Source: Myxococcales bacterium
Lineage (GTDB): Bacteria > Myxococcota_A > Polyangia > Polyangiales > DASUME01
Assembly (NCBI GenBank): GCA_047601445.1
Contig: JASGJH010000001.1
Coordinates: forward strand, 3,520,001-3,584,000
Length of the DNA: 64,000 bases
Direction of reading: 5' to 3'
Shown: one piece after another, positions 18,544 to 63,964 of the stretch
Layout of the letters: each line of letters begins with the position of its first letter
Position numbering within the stretch: position 1 is the first letter of the stretch
Program-made: the position numbers and the translations under genes
The notes under the pieces: generated by a model
What the model was told of the DNA's origin: nothing
Seen by the model: only the letters and a program-made list of their open reading frames with translations
Databases searched by the model: none

Positions 18544-19894
18544 TCAGGGCAGGTTGAGGCTGATCAACCCCTCATCGGACGGCCAATTCGGGATCCGCAT
18601 GCTCACGTTGTGGGTCTCGAGCTCGATCCAGGCCGGCTCACGGGCGTCCACGAACACGTCCGAGGCAAACAGGAAGGGCACGAGCTGGGTGGCCCCGAGG
18701 TCGCTCTTCTGGTTCTGGTTCTGGTCAGACATGAACAGGCCCACCGTGGTGGTGTCCTTGCCGGCCAGCTGGTCGTTGAGCACCTCGGTGCCGTTGATCT
18801 TGAGGGACTGCCCGAGGTCGTGTCGGAACGAGCCCTGCAGATAGCGCGCCACCATGGTCACGTGGTTCGGGCCGCGCACCAGCTTGTCGGTGCTCAGGCT
18901 GGAGACCAGCGGATTCTTGGAGAAGCTCACGAAGCGCACCAGACGATTGCTGCGCCTGAAGGGCGCGAAGTACACGTGGCCGATCAACTTGTCCTGACCG
19001 TCGATGGCCTTGAACTCATACTGCTTGCCGCGGGCAAGCTTCACCGGCGCAGCCCTACCGTCGGCCCCTGGCGTGATGGTGACCACCGGCGCCCCGCGCT
19101 CGGTGGGAGAGTCTCCCATCTCGTAGACCTCGATGCGTCCATCGGTGACCGGCACGTTGTCGCCCAGAGTCTCGCCCAGGCCCTCGACGGTGATCTCGTT
19201 GTCGCCGCACTGGATCTCGGTGTACTGCGGGGGCTTACCCAGCAGGTACTTGTACATCTCGACGAAGGCCGGGGTGCTCGAGGCGCAATCGACGTGGTCC
19301 TCGTTGGCCATCAGCGTGACCGTGGACTCGGCACCTGGTGCGTGGTGAGGCATCGCGTTGAGGTCGTTGGTCGACGAGAGGCTCAGCGCGTGGACGCCCG
19401 CCGGGACCGCGGTCTCGCCCGACACGTTGATGTAGTGCGCCACCTTGGCCGCCCGGCCGGGGTCGCTCAGGTAGTTGATGCAATGCCCGGTGCCCTGCGA
19501 GTGCCCCACCAGCTCCACCTGGGTCTGCCCCGGGGTCTTGGCCAGGATCTCGTTCACCACGGCGTCGATCTTCGCGACGACCTCCTCGCCCTGGTTGGGA
19601 TTGATCAGAATCCACCGAGTTGTACTCGACCGCCACGATGCGATCCTGACAGTAGCCGTTGCTGCCGAAGAGCATGGCTGGGTGGGCGAACTGATCCCCG
19701 GAGCCGAGCGTGCCGTGCACGAACACGATGGGGGGCAGGGTCTTGTCGCAGGCGTCGTCCGAGACCACCACGTCGCACTTCTCCGGCAGCGTGCTGCCCT
19801 CGCTGGGCGTCTTGTCATCCGACCCGCAGCCCACCGCGAGCGCCGCCAGCGTCAGCAGCCACATCCTCTTCTTCGCACCGTTCATTTCAAGCAT
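18544..19894 (-). CDS. lipoprotein lipase/esterase (alpha/beta hydrolase plus C-terminal domain), +1 frameshift at 19608-19612
   Basis: Lipobox LAVGC, PIVFVHG, GHSQG and EDHV. Removing one base from GATTC joins VEYNSVD to LINPNQGEE. Confidence 0.85.
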
Positions 19895-20138
19895 TGGTTC
19901 TCCGAGGCTCTGCAAAATTGCCGCATCAACGTAGCGGTCGGTTGGCGCGTGCATCATAGGGACAAGCGGGGCCCCGCGGCACTCTCCCAGCTTGCCAAGT
20001 GCTTGACCCGCGGAGTCACGCCCCCGTCGCCACAGCTTGCGAGGCTTCTCACCGAATCGTGGCGGGCCTGCGATGGGCCGCAGCTAGGTCTTCGAAATGT
20101 CCCTCCAAACCTGACGGGACATGAGGAGTGTTACCGCA

Positions 20139-21197
20139 ATGACCAGCCGTCATCTTTGGCCCTGCCTGGGAGCGGGGCTGCTGAGCGCCATGAGCGCCGT
20201 GGCCTCTCCCGCCCTCGCGGACGGCCCGCTATCGCGGGCGATTGACCTGTTCGAACGCCTCGAGAAGACGCAGTTCGCCGTGATCGGCGACACGCCCTAC
20301 CGCGACACGGACATCCCGATGCTCGACGAGGTGCTGCGCGAGATCAACGCCTCGGGCATGGAGTTCACCGTGCACAACGGCGACATCAAGAGCGGCAGCT
20401 CCCTGTGCTCCGACGACTTGTTCCAGGTGCGCTTCAACCAGCTCCAGCAGCTGCGACGTCCCCTGGTCTACACGCCTGGCGACAACGAGTGGACCGACTG
20501 CCACCGCCCGGCCGCCGGCGGCTACCAGCCCCTCGAGCGCCTGGCCAAGATCCGCTCGCTGTTCTTCGCCAACCCCAACTTCACCACGGGCAAGCTGCCC
20601 ATGCGCGTGCGCAGCCAGAGCAGCGACCCCGCCTACGCGACCTTCGTGGAAAACGCGCTGTTCGTGAAGAACGACATCGTGTTCGCCACGGTGCACGTGG
20701 TGGGCAGCAACAACAACAGGGCGACTTGGAGCGGCATCGGCGAGACCGCCGCCGCCCCGCGTCAGGATCGCCTGGCCGAGGTCGCGGCGCGCACCGCCGC
20801 CGCGCTCGCGTGGATCGACAAGGCCTTCGACGAAGCGGAGGCGCGCGGCGCAGCGGGCGTGTTCCTGGCCATGCAGGCCAACCCGGCCTTCGAGTCCGCG
20901 CAGGGTTCGCCCGAACGCCTGGGCTTCGACGAGATCGTCCAGCGCATCTCGGATCGCACGGTAGCCTTCGCGCGCCCGGTGCTCGTGGCCCACGGCGACA
21001 GCCACTACTTCCGCTATGACAAGCCCCTGATCGCCCCCACCCTCTCGGTGGGACCGCGCCGCCTCGAGGACTTCGCGCGCCTCGAAAATTTCGGCGACAC
21101 CGACGTGCACTGGGTGGAGGTCGTCGCCGACCCCAAGACGCCCGAGGTGTTCCGCATCGTGGCGCACATCGTCCAGAGCAATCGCTTCGAGCGCTGA
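20139..21197 (+). CDS. secreted calcineurin-like metallophosphoesterase
   Basis: Signal peptide ending ALA, GDTPY, HNGDIKSG, PGDNEWTDCHR and HGDSH. GAGGAG RBS. Confidence 0.85.
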   Translation: MTSRHLWPCLGAGLLSAMSAVASPALADGPLSRAIDLFERLEKTQFAVIGDTPYRDTDIPMLDEVLREINASGMEFTVHNGDIKSGSSLCSDDLFQVRFNQLQQLRRPLVYTPGDNEWTDCHRPAAGGYQPLERLAKIRSLFFANPNFTTGKLPMRVRSQSSDPAYATFVENALFVKNDIVFATVHVVGSNNNRATWSGIGETAAAPRQDRLAEVAARTAAALAWIDKAFDEAEARGAAGVFLAMQANPAFESAQGSPERLGFDEIVQRISDRTVAFARPVLVAHGDSHYFRYDKPLIAPTLSVGPRRLEDFARLENFGDTDVHWVEVVADPKTPEVFRIVAHIVQSNRFER

Positions 21198-21280
21198 GAT
21201 CACGCCTGCACGAAGCCAGGTGACGCAAATGTCACGCGCACGTCGGACGGGAGCCGTCTTTCGACACTAGACCCGGCTCC

Positions 21281-22171
21281 ATGTCCGACTCCTTGCGAAA
21301 CCACGTCGTACTCATCACGGGCGCCACCAGCGGCATCGGCCTCGTCGCCACGCGCTCGCTGCTGGCACGGGGCGCCAGGGTCTTCGCGACCTATCGCTCG
21401 GGCGCCAAGGCCAACCAGGTGTTCGCCGATCTGCCCCGCGAGGACTCGGAGCGCCTGAGCGTCTTGCCCCTCGAGCTGGGCGACTTCGACTCGGTGCAGG
21501 CCTGCGCCGAGCGGTTCCTCGCCACGGGTCTGCCGCTGCACGTCCTGGTCAACAACGCGGGTCTGGCCGGCGTCCGTGGGCGCACCTCCTCGGGCTTCGA
21601 GTCCGCCTTCGGGGTCAACCACGTCGGCCACTTCCTGCTCACTCGGCTGCTCCTGGATCGCCTGCTCGCTTCCGCCCCCGCGCGCATCGTCAACGTGGGC
21701 AGCCGCGCCCATCGCCGGGTGCAGGGTATCGACTTCGCGCGCGTCACCGAGCCCACCCGCTCCCTGACGGGCATCCACGAGTACAACGTCTCCAAGCTGG
21801 CCAACTTGTTGTTCAGCGCCGAGCTCGGTCGCCGCCTGGCGGGCACCGGTGTCCACACCTACGCGCTCCACCCCGGCGTGGTCGATACGCCGTTCTGGCG
21901 CGCCGTGCCGGCCGTGGTGCGGCCCCTGCTCAAGCTGCGCGGCATGATCTCCCCCGAAGCCGGCGCGCGCACCCTGCTCCACTGCGTCGGCGCCCCCGAA
22001 CTCGCGCAGGAGAGCGGCCTCTACTACGCGGATTGCCAGGTCGCTACGCCCACGACGGTCGCCCGAGACGGTGAGCTCGCCAGCCTATTGTGGCAACGCT
22101 CGGTGGCCTGGGTACGCCCTGCCCTGGGCCCCATTCCTGCCCAGGCAGTTTGGGATCCAGTTGGACCGTAG
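21281..22171 (+). CDS. SDR family oxidoreductase (retinol dehydrogenase/WWOX-like)
   Basis: TGATSGIG, NNAG, VNHVGHFLLT, YNVSK and LHPGVV. Confidence 0.92.
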   Translation: MSDSLRNHVVLITGATSGIGLVATRSLLARGARVFATYRSGAKANQVFADLPREDSERLSVLPLELGDFDSVQACAERFLATGLPLHVLVNNAGLAGVRGRTSSGFESAFGVNHVGHFLLTRLLLDRLLASAPARIVNVGSRAHRRVQGIDFARVTEPTRSLTGIHEYNVSKLANLLFSAELGRRLAGTGVHTYALHPGVVDTPFWRAVPAVVRPLLKLRGMISPEAGARTLLHCVGAPELAQESGLYYADCQVATPTTVARDGELASLLWQRSVAWVRPALGPIPAQAVWDPVGP

Positions 22172-22183
22172 TATCTTGGTGGG

Positions 22184-23272
22184 GTGCACGTTCAAGGCAC
22201 CTGTCATGTGTATCAAGCCATCGACTTGGGCTTTGCCATCGACCTCGCACGCGCCGAGCGGCTGCTCTCGGTGGACCCCATTCAACAGAACTTCAAGCGT
22301 CCGCGCAGAGCCACCGAGGCCGCGCAGCTGCAGCGCCACTCCTTGCGGGTCGCCCAGAGCGGCTTCCCGGTCCAGATCGGCAACTTCCGCACCGAGGGGC
22401 CCGTCGAGATCGTGCTCTGGGAATTCGGCGCCGCCACCATCGGCTACCAGATTCCCATCGACGGCACGCTGGCAGACCTGGTCCCGCTCTCCGATCAACT
22501 CTGGGACCATGGCGAGCTAATCGGCGACGCGCGGCGCCGGGCCGAGCACTTACTCATCACCATCCGCGAAGCGGTGGACAAGCCACGCCTCGGGGAGCGC
22601 ATCGAGGACTACGTGGTGTTCGAGCTGCGTTTGCCCGAGCGCGCGCCGGTGAATGGCCTGTGGACGGCCCACGCGGCGACCACGGCGAGCATCCTGCGCG
22701 CGGAGCCGGGCCCCCTCTCCGAGCAGGAGATCGCCGAGGCGCTCAGCCTGCGCTGCGCTTACCTGCCCGACGAAGTGGCCCTGATCGACTGGTTCGCTGC
22801 CTTGCTGGTGGGCGACGACATGGAAGACGAGCGGCTGGTGCTCGAGCTGACCGTGGCGGAGCTGCTCGAGCTGCGCACCTTGGACGATCAACTCGATCGC
22901 GGCGTGGACGCTGCCTACAACGTGCTCACGCGCAAGCGCAGTTGGCTCTCCTCGCTGTGGATGCGCGGCCCGGACCTGGCGGAGATCTCCCAGCTGCAGG
23001 CCGATGCGGCCGTGCTCTTCGAGGGCGTCGACAATGCCCTCAAGCTGCTCGGCGACCAATACCTGGCGCGCCTTTACCACGTGGCCTCCGAGCGCTTTCA
23101 CCTGCCGCAATGGGATACGGCCATCGAGCGCAAACTGAGGTTGCTCGACGGCATCTACGAGAAGCTCGCCACTCGCGCCTCGAGTCGCCGCTTCGAGCTG
23201 CTGGAGGTGGTGATCATCGTGCTGATCGCGATCTCGACCGTGGCGCCTTTCTTGCCGAAGTTCTGGCAGTGA
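22184..23272 (+). CDS. RMD1/DUF155-like protein
   Basis: FGAATI, DNALKLLGDQYLARLY, WDTAIERKL, and C-terminal TM LEVVIIVLIA. Confidence 0.75.
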   Translation: MHVQGTCHVYQAIDLGFAIDLARAERLLSVDPIQQNFKRPRRATEAAQLQRHSLRVAQSGFPVQIGNFRTEGPVEIVLWEFGAATIGYQIPIDGTLADLVPLSDQLWDHGELIGDARRRAEHLLITIREAVDKPRLGERIEDYVVFELRLPERAPVNGLWTAHAATTASILRAEPGPLSEQEIAEALSLRCAYLPDEVALIDWFAALLVGDDMEDERLVLELTVAELLELRTLDDQLDRGVDAAYNVLTRKRSWLSSLWMRGPDLAEISQLQADAAVLFEGVDNALKLLGDQYLARLYHVASERFHLPQWDTAIERKLRLLDGIYEKLATRASSRRFELLEVVIIVLIAISTVAPFLPKFWQ

Positions 23273-23750
23273 GCTGCGCCTCGAGCACGCTGCGCTCCTG
23301 GCCCCCGCGCCGCTGCACGCGCTCGGCCCCGCCAAGCTGCTCGAGCACGGCCACGAGCGCCTCACGCGCCGCCCCCTGAGCGCGCGCCGAGCCCCCGGAC
23401 AGCGCACGACGCTCGAGCTCGGGACCAACCTCGCTCCGAGAGACGCAGGTTACGCACTCGGGCATCCGCGCTCTCCCCGTACTCCACGTATCCCAGGGAC
23501 AGCGGCTCCAGGCTCTTAGGATGCCGCCTGCTGGGTCACCCCCAGCAGCTGCGCCAGCTGGCTCACGCCGCACGCGCTGTTCCCCACCTTTCGAGACGGC
23601 AAGGTCTGCGAGCTACGCGACTACGACTGCTTCGAGCCCTTCCAGAGATTGCGGTCCGCCGACGTGGAGGGCGCGGACACCGCTCCAGTCCAGTAACCTC
23701 CAACACGCCGTGAGACGCTGCGCGAGTAGTTCGCTCCGTGACGCGCAGCA

Positions 23751-23766
23751 TGGCCACAAACTTGCA
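23751..23766 (+). promoter_or_regulatory. putative sigma54 -24/-12 promoter
   Basis: TGGCCACAAACTTGCA fits GG-N10-GC with a TTGCA -12 box. It lies ~110 nt upstream of CDS 23878 in a ~600 bp intergenic region. Confidence 0.55.
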
Positions 23767-23877
23767 GCGACGCTCCGTCACAGCGCGCGAAGAACCCGTG
23801 CTCGCGGGGAGATTTTGCCCCGTGGACGACACGTTTTTGTCATGATGTGAAAATCAAGCGTCGAGGAGTTCACACAC

Positions 23878-24783: not shown

Positions 24784-24880
24784 GGCTGACTGCGGCGTAG
24801 TAGTTGCGGCCCGTCGCCGTCGCCGTTGACCCACCATCTCCAACCGTTGACGACTCCCTCTCCTCCTCACGTCATCATCA

Positions 24881-25552: not shown

Positions 25553-25678
25553 CACTATGCAGGGCCCCGATTGGGGAGCCAGCACGACCTCGCGGGCGGA
25601 CAAAAACGACACAGAGGGCGCCGCGCTACGCCGCGCGTTTTCGGGCGCTTGTGGCGTATTGGATGGGCCTGCTCCGAC

Positions 25679-27028: not shown

Positions 27029-27297
27029 CCGAGCACCTCCTCCTTTGCGTCCCTTCCACCCTGCCGCCCTTCGAGCGGCCTCGCAAAGGAGCAGTGCGCC
27101 AGCTGCCCGAACGCGCAGCGCGCACATGACGACCTGCCGTCTCTTCGAGAGCGTGCGCAGGCGCGCAGACTGCGCTCACTTGTCAGCAGACGCGCGAAAA
27201 AGCGTGGGGCACGTCGCTCACGCGGACATCGCATACGGGACAGCACCCGCGAGCGACGCAAGGTCTGCTCGAGTGCTCCGTAGAGCCCGAGGATGTC

Positions 27298-27847: not shown

Positions 27848-28897
27848 TCAGGCTCGGACGAGACGCAGTAAGGTGCTGTTGCGCACGGAGTCCGCAAGCA
27901 GGAAGGGCGGATCCGAGTCGGGCTTTCCCTGCAGGGCCCGGCGCACCCGGAAGCTGGCGAGGGCGCAGGTCCACGCCAGGTCTGCCAGCACCGCGTAGAC
28001 CGTGCCGTGGTTCTTCACGAAGTAGCGGTGCCGCGAGTCGAACACGTACTGCGGCCGGCGCTTGGGCGGCCCGGTGCGATCCGTCACCCCGGTGCTCTGT
28101 CCCGCGATGTGCATGACGCGACTGTCGGGCACGTACCAGCAGGGCCAACCAGCTCGCTTGGCGCGCAGACAGAAGTCGGTCTCCTCGTAGTAGAGGAAGA
28201 ACTCCTCGTCCATCAGTCCGATACTCTCGAACACATCGCGCCGAATCATCATGCTGGCACCGGGCAGCCAGTCCACGCGCTCGGCCCGATCTCCCATCTT
28301 CACGGGGACCTCCCAGCGGCTGAGCATGCGGGTGAGGGGCCCGAGCCGCGCGCCCCCCTCCAGCTCGCCCAACACACTGGGGAACCGAAACGCGGTGGAC
28401 CACAGGCTGCCATCTGGGTTCTCCAGGCAGCTCCCCGCGATGCCCACGCGCGGGTGCGCGTCCATGAACGCCGCCAACTCCGAGAGCGCGCCCGGACGCA
28501 CCTGACAGTCCGGATTGAGCAGCATGAACAGACCTGGCGCGCGCGCCTGGCTGAGCGCCTCGCGAATGGGAAGGTTGTTCCCGTAGGCGTAGCCGCCATT
28601 GCGCGGCGCCTCGATGCAAACCGCCCAGCCGGTGAAGCCGTCGTCCACGATGGCCGCCGCGATACGCTCCCTGGAGCCGTCGGCCGAGTCGTTGTCGACC
28701 ACCACCGTGCGCAGCCCTGGCATCGACGCGGCCTCGCCGGACAACGAGCGCAGGCAATCGATGCTGAGCGCCGCGGTGCGGTAGTTCACGATCACGACCA
28801 GCACCTCACACCCGGGCAACAAGGGTCGCAGGGGCTGCAAGGGATCCTGGGAAGTGCGTTTCATGGGTTTCCTCTCCTCTCGAGGGCGGGCGTTCAC
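27848..28897 (-). CDS. glycosyltransferase family 2
   Basis: VIVNYRT, VVDNDSADGS, NGGYAYGNN, LLNPD, GASMMIR and FFLYYEETDFC. GTG start overlaps the NRPS stop by 4 nt; alternative ATG at 28864. Confidence 0.93.
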   Translation of the reverse strand: MNARPREERKPMKRTSQDPLQPLRPLLPGCEVLVVIVNYRTAALSIDCLRSLSGEAASMPGLRTVVVDNDSADGSRERIAAAIVDDGFTGWAVCIEAPRNGGYAYGNNLPIREALSQARAPGLFMLLNPDCQVRPGALSELAAFMDAHPRVGIAGSCLENPDGSLWSTAFRFPSVLGELEGGARLGPLTRMLSRWEVPVKMGDRAERVDWLPGASMMIRRDVFESIGLMDEEFFLYYEETDFCLRAKRAGWPCWYVPDSRVMHIAGQSTGVTDRTGPPKRRPQYVFDSRHRYFVKNHGTVYAVLADLAWTCALASFRVRRALQGKPDSDPPFLLADSVRNSTLLRLVRA

Positions 28898-31800
28898 AGG
28901 TGCGCCGAGTCGCGGGCATCCGCGGCTTGCGTCGGTGCGGCACCGAGGTCCTTGGTCTTGGCGTCGATGCGCGCCTGGACGAGCCGCGCGAGCTCCTCGA
29001 CGTCGGGCTCCTGGAGCATGCTCGAATGTCCCCCGCCCGCATCGAACACCTTGAGCGTCTCGACCTTGCCCTCCCAGCCGAGCAGCGGCGATGCGAAGAT
29101 GTCCACGTAGGGCGTGTCGTCGATGGCGGTTCCATCGAAGCTCGGGTTCTTGTGCGTCGCGCGCAGCAAGACGACCTCGCCGCGGTAGGGTTCGGGTGTC
29201 ACGAATTCGCGCTCGGCGAAGCGCAGCACCACCTGCACCGGGATTCCCCTCAGATACTCCGGCATCGTGAGGCCTCGGTCGAGGTGCCAGCGGTACATAC
29301 GCATGCGGGCGTTGTTGCGGGCTCGCAAGGTGCGTGCGCTGAGCTCGTAGCTCAACACGTTGCCGCCCTTGCGGTAGGCCGTGCGCGCCAGCTCCCTGGA
29401 GCGCTCGAACAGGCCCATGGCAGGTTGCGCCGCCTCCTGTTCCAGAGCTGCCGTGAAGCGCTGTAGACGCTGCACGCTCTTGCTCTTGAGCGCCGCGTGC
29501 ACGTGCGCTGCATCAAGCAACACCACCAAAGCCACGGTCTCGCCCAGTTGCTGCAGCTGGCGCGCCATCTCCAGCGCGATGAAGCCACCGATGCACAGGC
29601 CGCCCAAGTAATAGGGGCCCGTGGGCTGGGCCTTACGCACGACCGTGACGTAGTGCTGCACGACCTCGCTGAGTCGAGAATGCAACATGGGATGATCGAT
29701 GGTGGAGCGCGGCTGAATGCCGTAGACCTTGCGCTCGCTCGTCAAGCGACGGCTCAAGTTCAGGTAGGGCAAGGTCTCGCCCTCCCCGTCATGCACCAGA
29801 AAGAGCGGCGGCTCGTCCCCGCCGTCGCGCAGCAGCACGAGCTCCTCGCGCAACTCGTGGGCCGGCCGTTCGAGCGCCTGCGCGAGCTTCTCCACCGTCG
29901 GATCCGTGAGCAGGGTGCTGAGCGGAAGCGCGCGCCCGAAGACTCTTTCGATCTCGACCATCAGGTCCACGCTCAAGAGCGAGTTCCCGCCCACCTCGAA
30001 GAAATTGTCACGGATGCCGATGGGACGGCCGGCGCCGATCACGTGCTCCCAGATCTTCGCCAGCCTCACCTGCTCCGGTGTGTGCGGCGGGACGAAGTCA
30101 CGCAGTGCCTCGAAGTCTTCCGCCGTGGGCATGGGCAGGGCGCGCCGATCGACCTTTTGGTTGAGGTTCACCGGCAGCTTGGGCAGCGTGGCGAACACCA
30201 CTGGCACCATGTAGTCGGGTAGCTTCGTACGGCACACGTCTCGCAACTGCCGCACCCGGGCCGCGGTGCTCTGGCTGCGCTCATCGAGCACCACGTAGGC
30301 CAGGAGGCTCGGCTCGCCGCCTCCAAGGTCTTTGGCCGAGACCACCGCCTCCTTCACGCCAGGCTGGGCACGCAGGGTGCTCTCGATCTCACCGGGCTCG
30401 ATGCGGATGCCGCGAAGCTTGAGTTGAAAATCGCTGCGACCGAGGATTCTCGAGCTGTCCGTGCTCGTCGGAGCGCCCCAGGTCGCCAGTGCGGTAGAAG
30501 CGCTGGCCGTCGACTTCGACGAACTTCTCGCGTGTGAGGTCCTCGCGCCCCAAGTAGCCGAGCGAGACCCCCTCACCGCCGAAGTAGATCTCTCCCACCA
30601 CGCCGAACGGCACCAACTGCTGGCGCGCGTCGTAGAGCCGCACCGACATGTTCTCGAAGGCGCTGCCGACCATGCTCTTGCTCACCACGCTCTCGCGCGG
30701 CACCTCGAACGTGCAGCCCATGCAGCTGATCTCGCTGCACCCGTAGATCACGAATAGCTCCGCCTGTCGAAACACGCGCTTGAGCGACTCCAGCAGATCC
30801 CCCGAGACCAGGTCTCCGCCCGAAGAGACGTGGCGCAGCCCGTCGAACAGCGTGACGTCGAGCCCCTGCTCACGCACGAAGGCCACCAACTTGCGCAGCA
30901 AGCTCGGCGAAGCATGCAGCACGGTGGTCTCACGTAGGGTGGGCACGAGCCGGCGGAAGTCGAGCACGTGTTCGCGCTCGAGCACGATCAAGCGTCCGCC
31001 CACCGCCAGGGTGGAGAACATCTCCAGCATCGTGATGCTGAAGGTGGAGCGCGCCATGGCCGGCATCACATCGCCCTCGTTGAAGCGATACTTGCGCTGA
31101 GCCGACAGCACGTAGTGGGCCAGGTTTTGGTGACTCACCATCACGCCTTTGGGCGTGCCCGTGGTGCCCGAGGTGTAGATCACGTAGGCCACCTGCGAGA
31201 GGTCGACCTCCACGGGCAGCGCGGGTGCGGCGCCCGGCGCGAAGGTCAGCAGGTGCTCGCGGTCGTCCACACACCAGATGCGCGCCACGCTCGGGACCAC
31301 GGACAGCAGGGAACGCTGCGTGAGCAGGACCTGGGCCGCCGTGTCGTCCACCATCAAGCGCAGTCGTTCGATCGGATAGCTCGGATCGAGCGGGACGTAG
31401 GTCGCCCCGGCCATCAGCACCCCGAGCAAACACACCACGGTGTCGAGGCCTGGCTCGAGGCACACCGCCACGCGCGCGCCGATACCGACGCCCTCCCGCG
31501 CGAGCTGTTGGGCCAGCGCCGAGGCGTGATACATGAGCTCGCCGTAGGAAAGGCTGCGGTCGCGGAAGCTCACGGCCTTGGCCTCGGGTCGGCGCTTGGC
31601 CTGCTCCAGCACGCAGTGATGGATGGGCTTGGTGCTGCGCAGCCAGTGGGCGCCGGTCCACGCTGCGAGCTGGTGGGAGAGCTCGAGCTCCGAGAGCAGC
31701 GGCAATTGGCCCACGGTCAACTCGGGATGCTCTGCCATGGCCGCCGACAGACACTGCAGACCGCGCGCCAGGCGCTCCACCGTGGCGAGCTCGAATACTT

Positions 31801-32317
31801 CCTGATCGTATTCGAAGCAGGCCGAGAATCCCTCGGGAGCCGGTTCGACCACCAGGCTCAAATCCGCGGCGACGTAGCGACTCGAGAGCTCGGCGAAGTT
31901 CACCGACAGCCGCGGGTACGCCTGGATCGACGTGCGCTCGCTGCGGGTCAGCGCTTCCTCCAGACACGAGCGCAGATAGGAGACCGACGCCTCCAGCTCG
32001 AGCTCCACCACGATCTCCGTGGCACCGAGATCGGGCGCGAGCGAGATGCCCATGCGGAAGTTGGGCTCTCCGCCGTAGCGCACCAGCAGGGCGATGAAGG
32101 CCGAGAGCGCGTGGGTGCGTGGGTCGGACTCGGCCGCGGGAATGCCGAGCATGAAGGTGTGTCGCGCCAGGGCGTGCTCCTGATTCGGGGCACGCATGCG
32201 ATCGGCGAAAGGCAAGGCACACCACGTAACGTCAGGCTGTCCCGCCACGCCACGCGCCAAGGTCCGGACGCCTTCCGTCGGAGTGCGCGGTAGCGCGCGC
32301 GAGCTGCCCTGCGACAT
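28894..32317 (-). CDS. NRPS-like enzyme (truncated C, A, PCP, TE), +1 frameshift at 30445-30449
   Basis: A3 YTSGTTGTPKG, A7 YRTGD, A8 GRSDFQLKLRGIRIEPGEIE, A10 NQKVDR, PCP FFEVGGNSLL, TE GGLCIGG/LLDA/GHSSML. Removing one A joins GQLE to ILGRSD. Confidence 0.9.
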
Positions 32318-32674
32318 CGAGAAAACGTCCTCCCGCGAAGGCGCGCAGGCGCACGCCCTTTCGCACATTCCAGAGGATGCGCCGCGGGGAGCGGCGTTGT
32401 CGAGCCCAGCGTGCGCGATGCCTCACCGCGTCGTGCGCAACAAGTTCGAAGGCGAGGCCAACGCGCGAACCGCTCGCGAGTTTGGAGGCAACGCGACTTG
32501 CTCTCGCGCATGCAGCACGGCTTGCTGCGTTCGAAAGCGACTTGGAGCGTGCGTGGCTATGAGAACATGGAATGAGTGAATGCACGGCGGTCTGCGGTCC
32601 GGGGGGAACGCGGCCGCGTTGAACGTAAGGTGCAGCGGGTGGCCGTCGCCCGCGAACACTGGTGGGAGGGAGTC

Positions 32675-35887: not shown

Positions 35888-36134
35888 TCAGTTTTGCTTG
35901 CCGGCCTCGGCCATCAGCTGGGCCTCCACCGCCTCGGTGGCTTCGGCCATGCTCACGCCGTACTGCTCACGGTAGCGCTTGATGAGCTCGATTCTTGTTG
36001 AGCGCCGGGGTGTTGGCTGGGGGTCGCAGACTGGCGGGACCACCGCGGCGCCGACGGTTGACCCACAGGTACCCCATGAAGCCGGAAATCACGATTCCGA
36101 TCGCCAACGCCAGCAATGTTCCTTGGTCCGCCAC
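35888..36134 (-). CDS. small TM protein with L7/L12-CTD-like tail, +1 frameshift at 35990-35994
   Basis: TM LLALAIGIVISGFMGYLWV. Removing one A gives NKIELIKRYREQYGVSMAEATEAVE...QN*. Confidence 0.65.
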
Positions 36135-38905: not shown

Positions 38906-39881
38906 TTAGGGCTCGCAGCAGCCGCTGCCTTCGCGCTGCCCGACGCACCACTCACTCATGCGCTTCCAGACTTCCTTGGCCATGGCCTGGGAGCCCTCGG
39001 AGATCGGGTGGATGTCGGTGTTGAACCAGTCGGGATCGTGGCCCTCGAACACGGGCACCATGTCGATGAAGTGACAGCGCAGCGCGCCGCCGGTGGCGTC
39101 CTCGCGGCCGTCGCAGAAGTCCTTCACCTGCGGCAGCGCGAACTCCAGCATCTCGTTGGGATGGGGTCCGCCGATGGGGCGCCCCTCCGGGATGTGGGGA
39201 TAGAAGAAGTACACCACGTCGCGGATGCCCGCGGCGATCATACGAATCCATCAGCTTCTCGGCCGCCGCCAGCGCGTCAGTGACCACTTTCTGACACTGC
39301 GGCAGCTTGGAGGAGCCCGTGTCCTTGCACTGCTCGATGCTCGGATCGGCGAGCCAGCCCACCAGCACGTCGTTGCCTCCGCCGTCCATCAACACCGTGT
39401 GCGCGTCGGGATCGGCCTTGATGGCATCGTCGAACTGGCTGGGAATGTACTGCCCGAGCGGCGCGCCCACGCCGCCGGTCGCCATCGACATGCCGCCGAT
39501 GGCCTGCATACGCCACATCTGGCCGGACTCACGCGCGATGTCCTGGGGGAACGTGTGGCTCGGCCAGTTGATGTACGAGTCCCCGATCACGATGACCTGA
39601 CTGTCTTTCTGGACGCACTTGGGCTTGGGCTCCTTGGCGTCGGAATCGCCGTCGCCATCCCCGTCGCCCGCGGGCTTGTGGTCTCCATCGCCATCGCCCC
39701 CGAGCTCGCCGTCGCCGTCTCCATCCCCGTCACCGCCCTCATCGTCCGGCTCGGAGTCGTCGCCGCCATCGCGGCCTCCCACGGCCTGGGCCGAGGGCCC
39801 CGACGACCCATCCGACTCCGCACAACCCGAAAGCACGCTCGCGCAGAGCGCAAGCCTTCCCACGAATCTCCACGTCCCCAT
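38906..39881 (-). CDS. SGNH/GDSL hydrolase lipoprotein, +1 frameshift at 39244-39248
   Basis: Lipobox LSGC, GD-repeat linker, IGDSY, DGGGNDV and DIHP. Removing one T joins KLMD to RMIAAG. Confidence 0.85.
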
Positions 39882-44191: not shown

Positions 44192-45087
44192 TTAAACCCG
44201 AACCCGCTCAGAGCTCATCTGCCACAAGCGCGTCGCAGCCTCGACATCGCGTCCGCCCTGGCTGGCTTTGCCTTCGTGACAATCCACGTAGTATCGCCCG
44301 CCCACGCGCTCGAGCTCGGGGGCCGTGGCGCAGTAGACCGTGGTGGCCGCTCCTTGCGGGATGCTCTTGGTGAAGGGCTTGATGGCCGTGGCCAGGGTCT
44401 GCGCGGCCAGGGAACTGCGAAAGATGGAGGTCCCGATGAAAGCCCCCGGATGCAGTGCGTTCGAGAAGATGCCCCGGCTCTGGTAGCGACGTGTGAGCTC
44501 ATTGGCGAACAGGACGTTGCACAGCTTGGCTTGTCCGTAGGACACCATGGAACCGTAGCCCGATTGGCTGAGGGGAAAGCGCTCGAACTCGAGCTTGCGC
44601 GGGAAGCGGTGGGACTCGGACGACACCATCACCACGCGCGAGGTGCCCGCGGCCGCCAGGCGATCGAGCAGCAGGTTCACCAGCAAGAAATGTCCGAAGT
44701 GGCACACGCCCACCGTGCTCTCGATGCCGTCCTGGGTGGTTTGATAGCGGGTCGCATACAGGCCGGCGTTGCAGAATCACCACGTCGAGCTTGGCGGGCA
44801 GCTCCTCGGCGCAGCGTCGCACGCTAGCAAGCGACGCGAGATTCGAGCGGGGTCAACTGAACCTTGGCCTCCGGATGCTTCGCGAGGATGTTCTGTTGGG
44901 TGGCCTTGCCGGCTTCGAGGTTCCGACATGCCAGTAAGGTGTGCGCCCCGGCTGCGGCCAGCGAGCGCGCTGCCTCATAGCCAATGCCGGAGTTCGCCCC
45001 TGTGATGAGGATGGTCTTGCCGACGAGGTTCACTCCCGAGAGGACCTCGTCGCAAGTCGTGCGCGCGCCGAACTTCGCTGTGGCCAT
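44192..45087 (-). CDS. SDR family oxidoreductase (WWOX/RDH-like), two +1 frameshifts (44840-44844, 44774-44778)
   Basis: TGANSGIG, reconstructed PLDLASLASV and VICNAG, then HFGHF, YGQAK and LHPG. Confidence 0.88.
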
Positions 45088-50789: not shown

Positions 50790-52647
50790 ATGCGCTCGCG
50801 CTTTCAACGGGAAGAGGAACGGGCCTGGACCGAGCAGATGGTGGGGGCCAAGCGTCGCTGGTTCACGGCGGCCCTGGGCAACGTGTTGCTGCTCGCTGTG
50901 GTCTTGGGGCTGCCCTTTTGGCGCGGTGTGCGACGGGCCAAGGACGTGTGGCCTCGCTACGCGCGCGCGGCGTCGTGCCTGCTTGGGGGCAAGCCCGCGA
51001 GTCAGCCGGGACTGGGCAAGCTGCCGGCGCTGGAAGCGCACTTCGGCGCGCAGGTGCTGAAGGCACTCGCGAAGGGCGACACGGGCTGGACCGCGCGCTG
51101 CGACTCGGAGCTCGCGAAGCTGGTCCCCGAGCCGGCCATCTTCGTGTGGCCACCTGCCAAGGAAGGCGAGCTGCGGGTGCGCGAGGCGGTGCGCGTGCTG
51201 CGCGCTGAGCTCTCGAAGTTGCGTGGATACCGCGGGGAGTCGCGCGTGCCCCACGACCCGGTGCGCGCCATCGAGCAGCTCCATCGCGAGCTGGAAGGTC
51301 ACGCCGAGCGCGCCGGGATCATCGATTTGCCGCCGCAGGCCGCGCTGCACTTCGACGAGCCCGCGGCGGCGCTGGCGCGCCCGAGCAGAATCCCCATCTA
51401 TGCGGGCTCCGACGCGGTGATTTCGCTGTGGGGCGACGACGCGGCGCTGTCGGTGGTCGCCGTCGACCGCACCGGGATGTCGTTCTTGAGCGCGCGCGCG
51501 GGCCACGTGGAGCAGTCGGTGCGCCACGTGCGCCCGCCGCTGCTCGAGGGCTTCGTCCACGAGCCACGGGGCGACTTCTTGCTGTGGGCGCTGGCGCGCG
51601 AGAAGTGCAGGAGCCGCAGCGGGGGTTGCGAAGGTAAATCGATGGGCGTCTCGCAGGTGGCCATGCCGCTGACGAACGTGCGCGCGCCACGCTGGATCGC
51701 CTCGCACCCGAGTGGACGCCTGGACCGCAGCGTGCTCGCTCCCACGGCCCATGGTGACTTGTGGCTGCTGCTGGCCGAGGGCCCCCAACGCCGCAGCGAG
51801 CTGCGTGGCTTCGCGCTGTCGGAGCAGCCTGGAGGCTACGCGGAGTCGGAGCTCGCGCCCCTCCGCTGGAGCTTCAGCACTCCGATCGCAGGGGAACCGC
51901 TAGGGCTCATTCAGTTGCCGAGTCGCAGTCTCGCCCTCAGCGCGAGTGCGCAGCAAGAGGGCCGCACCGAGTTCGTGGCGCGCGTGCTCGAGGGCGCGGC
52001 GCCGAGCGGTCCATCCGACACTCAGATCGCCCTGGCCAGCCTGCCCGCCGCAGATCCTCCATGGGCCGCCTACTGCACCGCGGGAGACGGCGCGGCGCTC
52101 GCGCTCGGCACCACCGGCCAACTGTTGCCGGTCCTGCTGAGCGGCGACCAGGTGCACCGCTGGCAGCCGATTGCGCTCGAGCTCGGTAGCGTGTTGCACG
52201 AGCGCGACCCCGTGCGGGACCGCGTGCTGAGCCTGTGCGTGCCAGGCGGCTTTTTGGCCTTCGCGCGCAGCAGCGACGACAAGCTGTGGCAGATCCGCTG
52301 CGAGGATACGGGTGAGGAATGCCGCAAGGAGCTCGTCGCCGAGCACGTCACGGGCTTCAGTGGGCTCCAGAGTGGGCAGGCGCTGGTACTCGCCTACGCG
52401 GGCCACGAGGAGCGCGCGCAGATTCGCGTGCAGCGCTTCGACCTCGCGGGCCACGCCCTGGGCAAGCCTGTGCTCCCGAGCCCCTGCTGGGATCCGCGAG
52501 GCGGCATGTGCGACCAACCGCGCCTGCACAAGCTCGGGTCTCGCTTGCTGTTGAGTGCCCGTGACGAGACCGATTCTGGTGGTGCTCGAGTCCCCCGACG
52601 ACGGCGCTTCTTGGCGCAGCGCGGGCGGCATCCCGTTGTCACCGTGA
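50790..52647 (+). CDS. membrane-anchored hypothetical protein, +1 frameshift at 52572-52576
   Basis: AGGAG RBS, N-terminal TM and Cys pairs. Removing one T gives TDLVVLESPDDGASWRS..SP*, an Asp-box-like motif, and removes the overlap with the kinase. Confidence 0.75.
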
Positions 52648-52681
52648 CGCGCCTGCCCTCGCCCTCTCCTCTCGCTGGAGC

Positions 52682-55762: not shown

Positions 55763-55765
55763 TCG

Positions 55766-56323: not shown

Positions 56324-56494
56324 GATGCTGTCGTCATGCCGCTCGCCGAGACCTGACGCAAAGCACCCGGCGCGTACATCCCCGCCCAGGAACACGCAGA
56401 CCCGCTTGTCAACAGCGTCAAGTAGCTGGTTCAACTCACTATTGTCGGAGCCCAGGGAAGCTCCCGCGGAGCCTGGCCGTAGTGAATTTCCAAG

Positions 56495-57619: not shown

Positions 57620-57739
57620 GAAGTGCGCTGCGCGTGAGTGCCCACGGCGCTTGCGTCCCTCGTTGGCAACTTCGAGGTTTCGCTGTCGCTCCACCTTCGT
57701 TCTGGAGTACCGTCGAAGGAACAAGAACGGAGGCCAGGC

Positions 57740-58654: not shown

Positions 58655-58898
58655 CGCCTCACTGAACGGCGCCACTGCGCGCGCCGTGACGTCGCGTGGC
58701 GCGATCTCGACAGACTCGTCAGCCCGGTGTTTCGCGGACTTTTCACATCACCTTCCAGTGACCGCCTCGGCTTTCACCCGGAGATTTGCGGGCGATCTTC
58801 CGCGATCTTCGTAGTTGTCAGGCAGACTCCAGAGCTGCATTCTGTTCGCTCGAGCGCGCACCGAGCACTGCGATCTTTGCTTTCTGATGGAGGCGGCA

Positions 58899-60050
58899 AT
58901 GCAGTCACAAGTACAGCTGGCACGTGAAGCCTGGCGGAGTTACGCGTCCACCGGACGTCTGCGCCACGATCTGCTGCGTCCCGAGATCTACCGTTCATGG
59001 CAACGCTGCCATTTCGACCACGTGAGTCCCCGTCAGTTCCGCCCCAAGATCCTCGGACGCTCCGAGTCCGATCGCGTGCGCGCGCTCAATGCTCCGCTCA
59101 TCTACGCCGCCGCGCCCTACCTCAACGCGCTCTCCGAAGCCGCTGGCGATGCTCGACATGCGACGCTGCTCGCGTCCCCCGACGGCACGTTGATCGACCT
59201 ACGCGGCGATGAGATCTCGCTGCAGGGGGCCGACGCCATGCCGCAGCCAGGCACCCTGCTGGCCGAGTCAGCCGCCGGCTCGAACGGGATCGGCACGGCC
59301 ATCGCAGAGGGCAAGTACGTGGAGCTCTACGGAGCCGAGCACTTCATCTCGGGCTTCCACGACCACCTCTGTCTGGGCCTGCCGCTGCGCAACTCCGACG
59401 GTGAGCTCGCGGGCGCGGTCTGCCTCTCGGTGCGCTCCTCCGAGGCCGCGTCTCACTTGCGCGGGCTGTTCTTCGCCGTCGCGCGCGGCATCGAGTGCGA
59501 GCTGCGCGCCGAGACCATGCGCCTGCGCTTGCAGCAGCTTCAACAGGCGACCTCACGCGCTGCCCAGTCGATGGTGCTGCTGCACGAGGAGGTCGACCGC
59601 AGCCGCCTGCAGGCACGCCACGAAATCGCCAGCAGCGTGGAGACGCTGGCCCAGGGCTTTCCGAGTGAACTGCTCGAGCACGCACGCGACAGCCTCGAGC
59701 GCTATCAGCGCAGTGCGCGCACGTGGCAGCTGGCGAGCGGCGTCACGCTGGCCCAACCGATGAGCGCCCACGAGTTGGCCTTCAACGTGGTCGAGCTGCT
59801 GCAGCACGAGGCCCGCCTGCTGCGCGTCCGACTCGAGTTCGGCACCCACTCGGAACCCAGCAGCAGCCTGGCGAACCCGAGTTTCGTGCGGCTGGTCTTG
59901 GGCGAGACCGCGCAAGCACTCCGCAATGTGGGCCCCAAAGGCCAGGTCCGTCTGAGCGTTCAGGGCGATGGCGCGGTGTGCATCCACTCGCAAGCCGAGG
60001 ACGCCTCCCTGTGGATCGAGCGACGGCTGCCGAACCGCATGGCGGCCTGA
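58899..60050 (+). CDS. AcoR-type GAF domain protein lacking AAA+/HTH domains
   Basis: IYRSWQRC, ESAAGSNGIGTA and GAEHF. No Walker A or GAFTGA. GGAGG RBS. Confidence 0.8.
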   Translation: MQSQVQLAREAWRSYASTGRLRHDLLRPEIYRSWQRCHFDHVSPRQFRPKILGRSESDRVRALNAPLIYAAAPYLNALSEAAGDARHATLLASPDGTLIDLRGDEISLQGADAMPQPGTLLAESAAGSNGIGTAIAEGKYVELYGAEHFISGFHDHLCLGLPLRNSDGELAGAVCLSVRSSEAASHLRGLFFAVARGIECELRAETMRLRLQQLQQATSRAAQSMVLLHEEVDRSRLQARHEIASSVETLAQGFPSELLEHARDSLERYQRSARTWQLASGVTLAQPMSAHELAFNVVELLQHEARLLRVRLEFGTHSEPSSSLANPSFVRLVLGETAQALRNVGPKGQVRLSVQGDGAVCIHSQAEDASLWIERRLPNRMAA

Positions 60051-60074
60051 CGGTCCCGAGGCTAAGCCCTTCCC

Positions 60075-61614
60075 ATGAGGGGCACGGACAAGGCGACCTA
60101 TCAGGTCAGCGTGTTGATCGTGGGGGCTGGCATCAGCGGCATTGGCGCCGCCATTCGCGTGCGCGCCGAGGGCATCGAGGATGTCGTGGTGCTCGAGAAG
60201 GCCGAGGAGGTCGGCGGTACCTGGCGGGACAATACCTATCCTGGCTGCGCCTGCGACGTGCCGTCGGCACTGTACTCGTACTCGTTCGCGCAGAAGCAGG
60301 ACTGGAGTCGCTTCTTCGCGGATCAACCGGGAGATCCTGCGCTACGTGCAGGCCACGGCCGAGCGCTTCGACGTGCGCAGGCTGGTGCGCTTCGGAGAAC
60401 CCGTGGAGAGCGCCGCCTGGCACGAACGACGCGCGCGCTGGATCGTGGAGACCCCGCGCGCCCGCTACGAGGCTCGCCTGGTGATCTCCTGTGGGGGCTA
60501 TCTCCACGAGCCGCAGGTCCCCGAGCTACCTGGTCTCGAGAGCTTTCCGGGCACGGTGTTTCACTCGTCGCGCTGGCGCCACGATCATTCGCTGCAGGGT
60601 GAGCGCGTGGCGGTGATCGGCACGGGCGCCTCCGCCATTCAGTTCGTGCCGCGCATTCAACCTCTCGTGCGTAGCCTCACGCTCTTCCAGCGCACGCCGC
60701 AGTGGATCCTGCCCAAGCCCGATGCGGCGCTCGGCGAGCTACCCCAACGTTTGCTCGCGCTGCCCGGCGCGACCGACACCTTGCGGCGCCTCCTCTATCA
60801 CGGCTTCGAGGCACTGGGCGCCGGCTTCCGGCATCCCGAGCTCATGCGCAGCGCGGAGCTCCTGGCCAAGGCTCACCTCGAGCGCGCCGTCGGCGACCGT
60901 GCCCTCCGTCGCAAGCTCACCCCGGACTACGTGCTCGGCTGCAAACGGGTGCTGCTCTCCAACGACTACTACCCTGCCCTCAGCCAACCCAACGTGGAGT
61001 TGCTGGCCACGGGCGTGCGCGAGATCCGCGGGCGCTCGTTGGTGGGCACCGATGGTCAGGCACGCGAAGTCGACACCATCATCTTCGGCACCGGCTTTCA
61101 CGTCTCTGATCCACCGATCGCCACGCGCGTGTTCGGCCGCGATGGACGCTCGCTGGCAGAGGTGTGGGCGGGCAGTCCCGAAGCCCATCGCGGGACCACC
61201 GTGCACGGCTTCCCCAACTCCTTCATGGTGCTCGGTCCCAACCTGGCCATCGGACACAACTCGGCCTTTGTCGTGATCGAGGCCCAGCTCGACTATGTGA
61301 CCAGCGCTCTCCGCAGCATGCGCGAGCACAGGCTCTCGCGCGTGGAGGTGAAGCGCGAAGCCCAGACAGCCTACAACCGCGAGGTGCAGCGAGACCTCGC
61401 AGGCAGCGTTTGGAATGTGGGCGGATGCTCGAGCTACTACCTCGATGCCAACGGCAAGAACAGCATCGGCTTCCCCTGGAGCACGCACACGATGCGCAGA
61501 CTCTTGAGCCGCTTCGACGTGGAGAACTACCTCACCGAGGCTGCCGAAGGGCCCTGGCTGGGAGGTCCGACGCCGGTCGGAGCGAATTCCGGGACCGAAG
61601 GGCTAGCGTATTGA
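60075..61614 (+). CDS. flavin-containing (Baeyer-Villiger type) monooxygenase, +1 frameshift at ~60330
   Basis: GAGISG, GGTWRDNTYPGCACDVPS, FPGTVFHSSRW (FxGxxxHxxxW), GTGASA and GTGF. Removing one G gives ADQPEILRY. Confidence 0.92.
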
Positions 61615-61639
61615 AATTGTTTGCAATAAAGTGAAGGCC

Positions 61640-61655
61640 AGGCCACCAAATAGCT
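61640..61655 (+). promoter_or_regulatory. putative sigma54-like -24/-12 element
   Basis: AGGCCACCAAATAGCT fits GG-N10-GC and follows an AT-rich tract. Imperfect match. Confidence 0.35.
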
Positions 61656-61665
61656 GAACATTTGA

Positions 61666-61780
61666 CGAGCATAGAGCACGGGAGTACGGTGCTCTTCAGC
61701 GGGCCTTCTCAAGGGGTCGGCACCTAGTTGAAGTGGAGCCCCGGATAGGCATTGGTGCCTATGCCGGGGCTTTGCCTTAT
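61666..61780 (+). ncRNA. candidate structured sRNA or leader RNA (2-3 hairpins, the last terminator-like)
   Basis: AGAGCAC/GTGCTCT stem (61673-61695), a weak middle stem, and AGCCCCGG-ATAGGCA-ttgg-TGCCTAT-g-CCGGGGCT followed by TTGCCTTAT. Confidence 0.45.
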
Positions 61781-61809
61781 GGTGGCGGCCGCGAAGGTGA
61801 AGTGAAGCC

Positions 61810-62118
61810 ATGACCACGAGTTCCAAAGCCAGCATCGCGATCGAGCACGAAGAGGAGGACGGGCGCGGCGCCTTCTTCGTGGAGCGCCAGGGCATCCGCC
61901 TCGCGGAGATGACCTACTCCCGCACCGGCGAGCACCTGATCATCGTCGATCACACCCAGGTCGACGAGCAGCTGCGTGGGCTCGGCGTGGCCCGCCTACT
62001 GCTGGACACGCTGGTGGCCTGGGCGCGCCAGACCAAGACCCGGGTCGCGGCGACCTGCCCCTATGCGAAGGCGCAGTTCGAGAAGGATGGGAGTATCCAG
62101 GATGTCTACGAGCGTTGA
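61810..62118 (+). CDS. GNAT family acetyltransferase (YjdJ-like)
   Basis: AEMTYS, IVDHTQV..LRGLGVA and TCPYA. Confidence 0.9.
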   Translation: MTTSSKASIAIEHEEEDGRGAFFVERQGIRLAEMTYSRTGEHLIIVDHTQVDEQLRGLGVARLLLDTLVAWARQTKTRVAATCPYAKAQFEKDGSIQDVYER

Positions 62119-62184
62119 CTGGCTTCGGGGACGGCGACGAACCGCAACTAGATGCCAGCGCCCTGACTAAGGGGGGCCCCCGCC

Positions 62185-63964
62185 CTACGGCACAATCGGA
62201 GGCGGCCCGTCGGGCTCGACCGTGTACTGCCCGCAGCGCGCCAGGGTATCGCCGACCAGCACAATCTCGCCGCGCTGGATGTCGTACATCTCGTAGGTGG
62301 GCACGAGCTGCACGCTGCCGTCTTCCTGCACTTGAGCGCACCAGTAGAGGATGTTCGAGAGAACATCACCGGTCTTGGTGTCGAAGTCGAGGGGTCCCGA
62401 TGCGCCGATCAGATTCGATGCGGCCGCCGCTGAGCAGCTCCTTGAGCGCGCCGTTGATGCGCGTTCCGCCAACGTCGACGCGAGGCACACCGTCAGCCGG
62501 CACGAGCTTGCCGATTGCGGCCGCCAGATCGACGCCAACTGGATGGGCTTTGCCGGCCACCACCGATGCGTAGGCGAGGACGTAAAGGGCGTCGTAGGCG
62601 TTGGCGGAACCGAAGGTGATGGGCACCGGCGGGGCTTCGGCCTTGGACACGTAGAGCTGCTGGAACAACTCGTAATTGCCGCCCATAGCCCCGGGTTCGG
62701 TGCCCGACACGCGATCGGCCAGCTGCAGGGCGCCGTCGGGATCGACCTTCTCGATCACAGCGCTCAGCTCGGCCGTGTGCGCGCCGTCGGCGAACACGTA
62801 GCTGGGGCGAGCCCCATCGAGGTCGTCGTCCCAGGCGGCTTCGATCATCTCGACCAGGGTGGCCACCTCGGCGGTGCCGTAGAGCAGGACCAGATGCGGC
62901 TTGAGGGTGAGCACCTTGGCCACCGCCTCGTCGTATTGGATCGGCGCTGCCACGGGATTGCCCGGGTCGCCGTAGTTGAAGCGCGTCACGTAGGGCGCGT
63001 TCGGATCAGAGACGAAGCCATCGTTCCACAGCAAGCTGCGGGAGACGTCTTCGGCCAATCCGATGCCGTAGGGATCGCCCTTGTGCAGCAGCGCGAGCCG
63101 CATCGTCTTCGAACTGCCCCCGATGATGCCCTGGTGGGTCTGAATGATGCCGCGGACGCGGGTGGCGAGCAGGGTCTGGGCGCGCGCCTGGATGACGTCC
63201 GAAGGGGACGTGCGCCAGAGCAGGTTGTTGTCCATCAAGTCCGTCAAGGCCGCGCTGGTGGCCGACGGCGAGATCAAGAGGACCCCGGCGGGGATGGCGA
63301 TCTGGGAGGCCACGCTCAAGGTGATGCCGCTGAAAGAAGGTCCGATGATGGCACTGACGCCAAGATCGGAGACCAGGTGCTGGGCGCCTGCAATGGCCTG
63401 GGCCGTGTTGCCTGCGTCGTCGCAGTGCACCACCACGATGGGCCGACGACCGGTGTTCTCCACAGGAGGCAAGCCGTTGCCGCTCACGGTGAAGTCATCG
63501 ACGGCTAGCTTGATTCCCCACAAGTTCGAGAGGCCGGTGCTCGAGTTCGGTCCGGTCGTGGGACCGATGCTTCCGAGCAGCAAGGCGCTGTCGTTCTTGT
63601 AGTCCCCGATGACCTCGGTGCAGTGGTCGGCGAGCAGGGACACGCAGACGGCGCGCTCGTGGTGACAGAGGAAGTTCTCACCGAGTCGATCGACGCAGTC
63701 CTGGGTGTGAGAACACGCAACCTCGCCCGCGTCGGAGTCCGAGGCATCGGAGCCCGCATCGGCGGGCGCTTCGGGGGCGGCGTCGTGGCCCATCCCGCTG
63801 TCGACGTGGTCGTCGAGCGTGTCGTCGGGCGGCTCGGCCACTGGAATGGGCTTGCCAAGGGCATCCCTGCCGACGATGAACTCACAGCCAAAGGAGCTGA
63901 CCGTGCACGCCAGGCCGACTGCATACGCCGCGCGCAGGGCGCCTGAACGAAGTTGGGAGCTCAA
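62185..63964 (-). CDS. ABC-type (LivJ-like) substrate-binding lipoprotein, +1 frameshift at 62412-62416
   Basis: Lipobox SFGC, DAG linker, Cys-rich segment, AIIGPSFSG, ISPSATS, RTSPSD and AYDA. Removing one A gives RIDLIGASGPLDFD...PPIVP*. Confidence 0.85.

Follow-up and report, generated by a model that had tools for sequence, protein, structure and literature searches.

Nanopore assemblies are known to carry errors linked to short sequence motifs, e.g. the Dcm site CCWGG (PMC6591954). With R10.4.1 reads from E. faecium and K. pneumoniae, GATC is the dominant error-linked motif (PMC11610603), and native reads compared with amplified reads show more insertions and more A/G confusion, with GATC giving the most false single nucleotide polymorphism calls (10.64898/2026.01.14.699587). 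Errors at GATC are described here for a 64,000-nucleotide stretch of a Myxococcales genome (GCA_047601445.1, contig JASGJH010000001.1, positions 3,520,001–3,584,000; termed the window) and for the genome as a whole (G000). One extra base is present within GATC, GAATC or GATTC is read, and the open reading frame is broken. N6-methyladenine (m6A) placed by an orphan Dam methylase is proposed as the cause, with a probability of about 0.8 as judged from sequence data. G000 consists of 9.50 Mb in a single contig, and long reads are therefore implied; it has 66% G+C and is 98.7% complete and 5.4% contaminated.

The GATC errors of G000 are an artefact of a known kind. As in modification-linked nanopore errors described in the accessible parts of PMC6591954, PMC11610603 and 10.64898/2026.03.20.713089, one short palindrome that matches an encoded methylase is affected and most sites are correct. 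However, the G000 errors are +1 purine insertions with a preference for AGATC and TCGATC, whereas those given in the same parts are mainly substitutions or of unstated error type. In addition, the G000 errors are deduced from frame breaks.

The methylase itself compares with the Dam/DpnM family (TIGR00571; PDB 2dpm, 2g1p). It is similar in scoring over the profile cut-off, in its motifs and recognition residues, in being an orphan conserved in its lineage, and in neighbours that are partly conserved. It differs in the Myxococcota host and in the lack of SeqA and of an origin GATC cluster. Neither SeqA nor an E. coli-like GATC cluster at oriC was found; around dnaA, 5 GATC are counted in a 559-bp and 6 in a 581-bp stretch, vs 5.8 per kb. 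Thus there appears to be no origin sequestration of the E. coli type.

A third system for comparison is the methyl-directed mismatch repair of E. coli, which employs Dam, MutH, MutS, MutL, and UvrD. G000 has homologues of all five, including a stand-alone MutH. Some lineages resemble E. coli also in having lost the MutL nuclease motifs, but G000 has kept them. Methyl-directed repair is reportedly confined to part of the Gammaproteobacteria.

Insertion signature in the genome

Frame shifts were scanned with a three-periodic Markov codon model trained on G000, with +1 frame movement scored across every word. GACTC/GAGTC words, given the same +1 frame-switch score, are the controls for GAATC/GATTC. 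A +1 frame switch is present at 144 of 3,439 scorable GAATC/GATTC words vs 19 of 6,939 control words (Fisher p = 2e-49). The GATC insertion signature is thus real and genome-wide. The scan recovers 329 of 600 insertions simulated at random GATC sites, and with this detection rate the total extrapolates to approximately 250 sites, or about 0.45% of the 55,119 GATC. Most GATC sites read normally, as was first noted from the window.

An unbiased ranking of all pentamers places AGAAT/ATTCT and GAATC/GATTC on top. GAATC/GATTC lies within 15 nt of 134 of the 241 +1 events not at gene ends (background 2.8%), and of 4 of the 71 −1 events. There is no strand or replichore bias, and events are evenly spread along the chromosome. 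No deletion motif is found genome-wide beyond gene overlaps of the ATGA type, and the 37 candidates for in-frame stops, largely gene ends, give no evident nonsense substitution at GATC. The rRNA operons show no GATC insertion, and most of the GATC in them has a low-error context.

When repeats are compared with each other (131 pairs, 78.8 kb, 158 shared GATC), a test of low power, no GATC/GAWTC difference is seen; 2 of the 34 indels adjoin GATC. A 13.4-kb duplicate with 99.73% identity is found at contig positions 123,599–136,964 and 9,455,897–9,469,255; two of the differences between its copies are single-base indels adjoining GATC.

The initial annotation saw no flanking consensus, but a context is apparent genome-wide. 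With events oriented as GAATC, A is found at position −1 in 74% vs 21% of intact GATC, and the remainder is mostly TC. AGAATC/GATTCT is frameshifted at 109 of 645 scorable words. The error rate follows the two to three upstream bases and ranges from approximately 0, when T or G precedes, to 4% at TCAGATC. The 3′ base is of little effect (A.T 1.22%, A.C 0.86%, A.G 0.85%, A.A 0.70%). RGATCY or AGATCT as the target is ruled out by this one-sided, graded context. A second, weaker class, GAGATC/GATCTC (41/5,463 vs 0.13% background), fits the gain of one purine within the same run of purines.

Error at a minority of sites need not signify partial modification, since the rate ranges from ~0 to 4% with the upstream bases. 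Miscalling that depends on the k-mer would give such a pattern even if every site were fully methylated. A strong k-mer dependence could also come from the basecaller or polisher mishandling an unmodified AGATC, and the methylation of G000 is deduced from its genes. However, the palindromes AGCT, TCGA, GTAC, TGCA, and ACGT show no comparable +1 excess, and two error-rich assemblies with many AGATC sites (G022 and G041, see below) are free of the error. A quirk of this type is improbable.

Assembly errors versus mutations

Once the middle base is removed, 135 of the 144 sites are stop-free over 120 codons. Homologues were sought in 3.8 Mb of loci, and at 38 of the 41 sites having any homologue, one alignment spans the site. 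The only valS gene, which has the HMGH and KMSKV motifs and no second copy, is split at a GATC insertion site. Because the sole valS is split in this manner, the insertions are assembly errors. What appear as extra bases are errors in the consensus of an assembly from long reads, most likely nanopore, and not mutations.

Real mutations, e.g. from MutH nicks that left scars or from slippage at GATC when repair is faulty, would fit the presence of a MutH gene and the fact that events are all +1 at one motif. But valS would then be dead, and approximately 250 genes would have been hit without decay. Moreover, in unrelated families the pattern goes with noisy assemblies, and clean ones lack it. 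This explanation is scarcely plausible.

The consequence for annotation is that approximately 250 genes of the G000 assembly look like pseudogenes yet are intact, and these include nonribosomal peptide synthetase (NRPS) genes of the type mined for natural products. Other long-contig metagenome-assembled genomes of Polyangiales may carry similar numbers of falsely broken genes.

Dam methylase as the proposed cause

An intact orphan gene for a Dam/DpnM-family N6-adenine methylase is found in G000 (Table 1). It scores 292 bits with the Dam profile TIGR00571 (cut-off 115), and its best structure match is DpnM 2dpm (E = 9e-67). K9, N120, L122, R124, and P134 of E. coli Dam are kept, and Y119 is replaced by F, as in DpnM. 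These six positions are presumably the GATC-recognition residues. G007, a same-genus genome syntenic with the window, is the reference for orthologue comparisons, and dN/dS for dam against it is 0.09. Dam is present in 38 of 41 genomes that sample the order Polyangiales and scores above cut-off in 71 of 121 that sample the phylum Myxococcota; its closest relatives in named genomes are in Sandaracinaceae and Polyangiales. The neighbours in G000 are mlaE/mlaF and a gene with a FolB domain, with no nuclease adjoining. mlaF is near dam in 13 of 26 loci, a count that includes the locus of G000 itself and one genome sampled twice.

The organism thus very probably modifies GATC, as was proposed in the initial annotation, which had also placed the responsible genes outside of the window. 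Its suggested search for a dam-type methylase yields this gene.

In the proposed mechanism, Dam is active in G000 and its target is the A of GATC. If this methylated A is the last base of a purine run (AGATC) or comes after TCG, basecalling would wrongly yield one extra purine. The products would be AGAATC and, less often, GAGATC, with GATTCT on the opposite strand. The miscall would survive into the consensus at approximately 0.45% of sites. If so, a site of methylation becomes visible through the error motif, with no recourse to raw signal.

Restriction-modification of the DpnII type was considered and rejected. There is no cognate nuclease, the DpnII/MboI nuclease (PF04556) being present in none of the 41 Polyangiales genomes, and dam has the neighbours given above. 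Neither a 5-methylcytosine (m5C) methylase nor a type I N6 methylase was found in G000.

The initial annotation leaned to phosphorothioation or another bulky mark. In the accessible parts of the sources, dnd and dpd systems are associated with high nanopore assembly error rates (10.64898/2026.03.20.713089) and GATC is a known phosphorothioate site (PMC9069010). The gene content of G000 speaks against a Dnd mark (GpsATC) or a Dpd 7-deazaguanine mark. Neither DndC nor DndD was found in this nearly complete genome, and DndC was found in none of the order's 41 genomes, the error-bearing ones among them. DpdA was not found in G000 either, in a search in which no control scored above cut-off; DndE gave no match in a search where no control genome matched, i.e. 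without a working positive control. G000 has only one gene of the PAPS-reductase family, and by its sequence it looks like CysD. Its two tRNA-guanine transglycosylase genes (contig positions 666,758 and 4,727,004) both score as the full tRNA type. A Dnd or Dpd mark is thus largely refuted and hardly credible as the cause.

Signature in other assemblies

Five other Dam-positive Polyangiales assemblies were sampled at 200–400 kb. G043 (0/16) was kept separate because its sites are too few; G031 and G044 represent one genome and enter the count once. Three of the five show the same signature in the same contexts (G021, 20/203; G010, 27/105; G044, 9/85), and all three have a high frame-error background. 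The clean Dam-positive assembly G039 shows none (0/252), nor does a clean Chloroflexota assembly, G042 (0/141). The error footprint would point indirectly to in vivo writing of the Dam mark in three more families of Polyangiales.

Several observations weigh against Dam m6A as the cause. The noisy Dam-positive assembly G022 is without the signature (1/84). So is G041, a noisy low-GC archaeon with a Dam-like gene (8/602, p = 0.42; AGAATC/GATTCT 3/212). Therefore a dam gene together with a noisy assembly is not sufficient. The order also conserves three other orphan methylases, one of the beta class (N6/N4; 35/41), one of the alpha class with SPPY (33/41), and a second D12 enzyme (34/41). In addition, the exact GATC-to-GAATC consensus insertion was not found described in the literature searched. 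Chemistry, GC context, or an additional mark specific to a lineage may play a part in the error.

One such extra mark would be a second or different modification of GATC in Polyangiales, e.g. N4-methylcytosine or a neighbouring methylated A, made by another of the orphan methylases, with the double mark driving the error. The conservation of the three enzymes would agree with this. G022, which lacks both the error and a match for the second D12 enzyme, and the archaeon, which lacks the error and where only the Dam-like gene is known, would agree as well. However, the context looks like a k-mer effect, and the likeness of the three enzymes to GATC enzymes goes no further than family level. The link with the second D12 enzyme depends on one negative genome. 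A double mark is unlikely, and Dam m6A by itself is preferred.

In the literature searched, nothing was found that joins DNA methylation, a methyltransferase, and its motif in Polyangiales.

MutH, MutL and mismatch repair

A stand-alone, single-copy MutH-family gene is found in G000 (Table 1); across the order 33 of 41 genomes have one, across the phylum 50 of 121. The G000 gene has a dN/dS of 0.20. The protein falls narrowly below curated cut-offs (233.7 vs 243 for NF003458, and 194.2 vs 229.9). Positions K48, E56, D70, E77, K79, E91, K116, R184, K186, and Y212 are invariant in E. coli MutH and 19 Polyangiales sequences; we take these to be residues of the active site. A Sau3AI-type enzyme, which is a two-domain protein of ~475 aa beside an m5C methylase, was considered for this gene and rejected. 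The score is 48.7 against a cut-off of 300, and the length is 214–239 aa in 19 of 20 loci, the remaining one being frameshifted. None of the 20 MutH loci has an open reading frame with methylase motifs nearby. The MutH gene in myxobacteria is not new; public records of Sorangium and Minicystis carry the annotation.

Beside Dam and MutH, G000 encodes homologues of MutS (by motif only), MutL, and UvrD. Because these homologues are also encoded, a role of GATC methylation in strand discrimination during mismatch repair is likely. By gene content G000 resembles the methyl-directed repair of E. coli and may belong with that system. A gap of more than 2 kb between GATC sites occurs once in 55,118.

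The MutL of G000 keeps the nuclease motifs DQHA..E....D, ACH, and CPHGRP, with one E-to-D change. One genome with neither Dam nor MutH and one with MutH but no Dam also keep them, without the E-to-D change. They are lost in four genomes with both Dam and MutH, i.e. G012, G014, G016, and G143 (the G012 contig ends before the last motif), and likewise in E. coli. The motifs were read in seven genomes, a high Pfam score serving as proxy elsewhere. In a 30-genome sample, the MutL_C score is high in all 13 genomes without Dam or MutH. Motif loss is found in 4 of 15 Dam and MutH genomes vs 0 of 13, which is not significant (p = 0.10; related genomes are not independent, and G021, with a fragmented MutL, and G134, with no MutL_C match, are left out).

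Some families do not follow a strict pairing of Dam with MutH. In one Myxococcota family (f31), 9 of 11 genomes have MutH and none of the 11 has Dam (TIGR00571); two families show the opposite, Dam with no MutH. The f31 members include G050, G062, G067, and G118, and the MutL motifs are intact in the one that was read. Family f16 shows no match for Dam, MutH, or two of the three further orphan methylases.

Polyangiales and some other Myxococcota may run Dam/MutH methyl-directed repair outside of the Gammaproteobacteria, with a transition in progress that would arrive a second time, in parallel, at the arrangement of E. coli; this view is favoured by a small degree. In such a transition most genomes would have a nuclease-competent MutL beside MutH, and at least four families (f4, f6, f8, f52), all with Dam and MutH, appear to have lost the motifs. 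A lineage-wide orphan Dam, with MutH and repeated loss of MutL motifs, suggests strand discrimination of the E. coli style in myxobacteria. If so, how methyl-directed repair replaces MutL nicking becomes testable.

No literature on mismatch repair with MutH and Dam in Myxococcales was found, and no title on the subject is among the matches listed. The accessible parts of PMC5010890, PMC1636413, PMC3439923, and PMC4752239 contain nothing on myxobacterial Dam or MutH.

Sites inside the window

All eight GAATC/GATTC pentamers reported in the initial annotation are present in the window (Table 1). Their repair to GATC had been said to restore seven genes. By the codon model, removal of the middle base gains 14–47 log-units at seven of the eight sites, but at 52572 the score is −6.9. 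G007 reads GATC, with one base fewer, at 30445, 35990, and 44774; it also has one base fewer at 44840 and 52572, in diverged sequence. Proteins of G007 change frame at window positions 13649, 30447, and 35994. A 618-aa protein of G007 aligns up to window position 52574, where the alignment stops at residue 595. The codon model is the support for 39244 and 62412.

At 19608, a homologue spans the junction after read-through, and Pfam Lipase_C lies downstream. The NRPS gene broken at 30445 has Pfam AMP-binding in one piece and AMP-binding_C in the other. The gene with two errors, at 44774 and 44840, carries the label short-chain dehydrogenase, which comes from motifs noted in the initial annotation.

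An extra G before a GATC near 60330 had also been proposed. The +1 error is real but its position is not fixable; removal of a base from the GATC at 60320–23 and removal from the G-run before the next GATC score alike (33.1–33.9). The event probably belongs to the second error class, an extra purine before AGATC. The error at 13645 was correctly set apart as a homopolymer error away from GATC; compared with G007, it is a missing base, not an insertion, in an A-run.

The window is unusually dense in errors. About 1.6 events are expected, and the probability of seven or more is 0.0015 per window. The strict scan recovers four of the eight window sites, a number reached in 3 of 149 windows.

Table 1. 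Frame errors in the window (window positions) and genes outside of it (contig positions); gains are codon-model log-units upon removal of the extra base
Feature	Position	Strand	Evidence
−1 error in A-run, PASTA-domain gene, outside the GATC class	window 13645..13650	-	G007 has one base more; frame change
+1 error (GAATC on +), lipase/alpha-beta-hydrolase-like gene, context CAGATC	window 19608..19612	-	gain +34.6; 512 codons open after removal
+1 error (GATTC), cuts NRPS adenylation domain	window 30445..30449	-	G007 GATC; G007 protein frame change at 30447-9
+1 error (GATTC), small conserved gene (89 aa in G007)	window 35990..35994	-	G007 GATC; frame change; gain +29.6
+1 error (GAATC on +), context ACGATC	window 39244..39248	-	codon model: gain +35.4, frame open for 359 codons
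+1 error (GAATC on +), first of two in one gene	window 44774..44778	-	G007 GATC; gain +14.3
+1 error (GATTC), second in the 44774 gene, context TCGATC on minus strand	window 44840..44844	-	one-base gap vs G007; gain +46.6
+1 error (GATTC), near 3′ end of ~618-codon gene	window 52572..52576	+	one-base G007 gap; end of G007 protein alignment; codon model unsupportive
+1 error between two GATC sites, flavin-monooxygenase-like gene (Pfam FMO-like)	window 60320..60336	+	codon model; exact base not determinable
+1 error (GATTC), periplasmic-binding-protein-family gene (Pfam Peripla_BP_6), context TCGATC on minus strand	window 62412..62416	-	codon model: gain +26.7, 625 codons open
Orphan Dam/DpnM-family N6-adenine methylase	contig 593,316-594,200		motif I and DPPY present
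MutH, 221 aa	contig 4,784,312-4,784,977 (L250:6312-6974)		E. coli MutH structure 1azo, E = 1.6e-49
MutL	contig 1,363,150-1,364,985
Three further orphan DNA methylases	contig 553,907-554,968; 7,657,246-7,658,439; 8,797,639-8,798,499

Additional observations

The NRPS gene at window positions 28,894–32,368 (minus strand) consists of a single module (condensation remnant, adenylation, peptidyl carrier protein, and thioesterase domains). Its apparent split comes solely from the 30445 error, and the G007 copy is intact.

A weak second +1 motif, GAAATT/AATTTC, is found at 8 of 366 words vs 0.3%, e.g. at contig positions 1,985,645; 2,923,028; 3,873,525; and 7,426,688. It is possibly an m6A site with an AATT core; the best structure match of the beta-class methylase is M.RsrI (E = 1e-26).

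The contig start (positions 1–180,000) is of low GC content, 55–62% vs 66%, and represents a large island, an integrated element, or a chimeric join. This segment may explain part of the 5.4% contamination. A type ISP/IIG-like methylase is also encoded in G000, at contig positions 644,464–647,634 (L103:9464-12631). It is situated in a menaquinone-type gene cluster, carries a specificity domain, and is fused to a Ser/Thr kinase domain.

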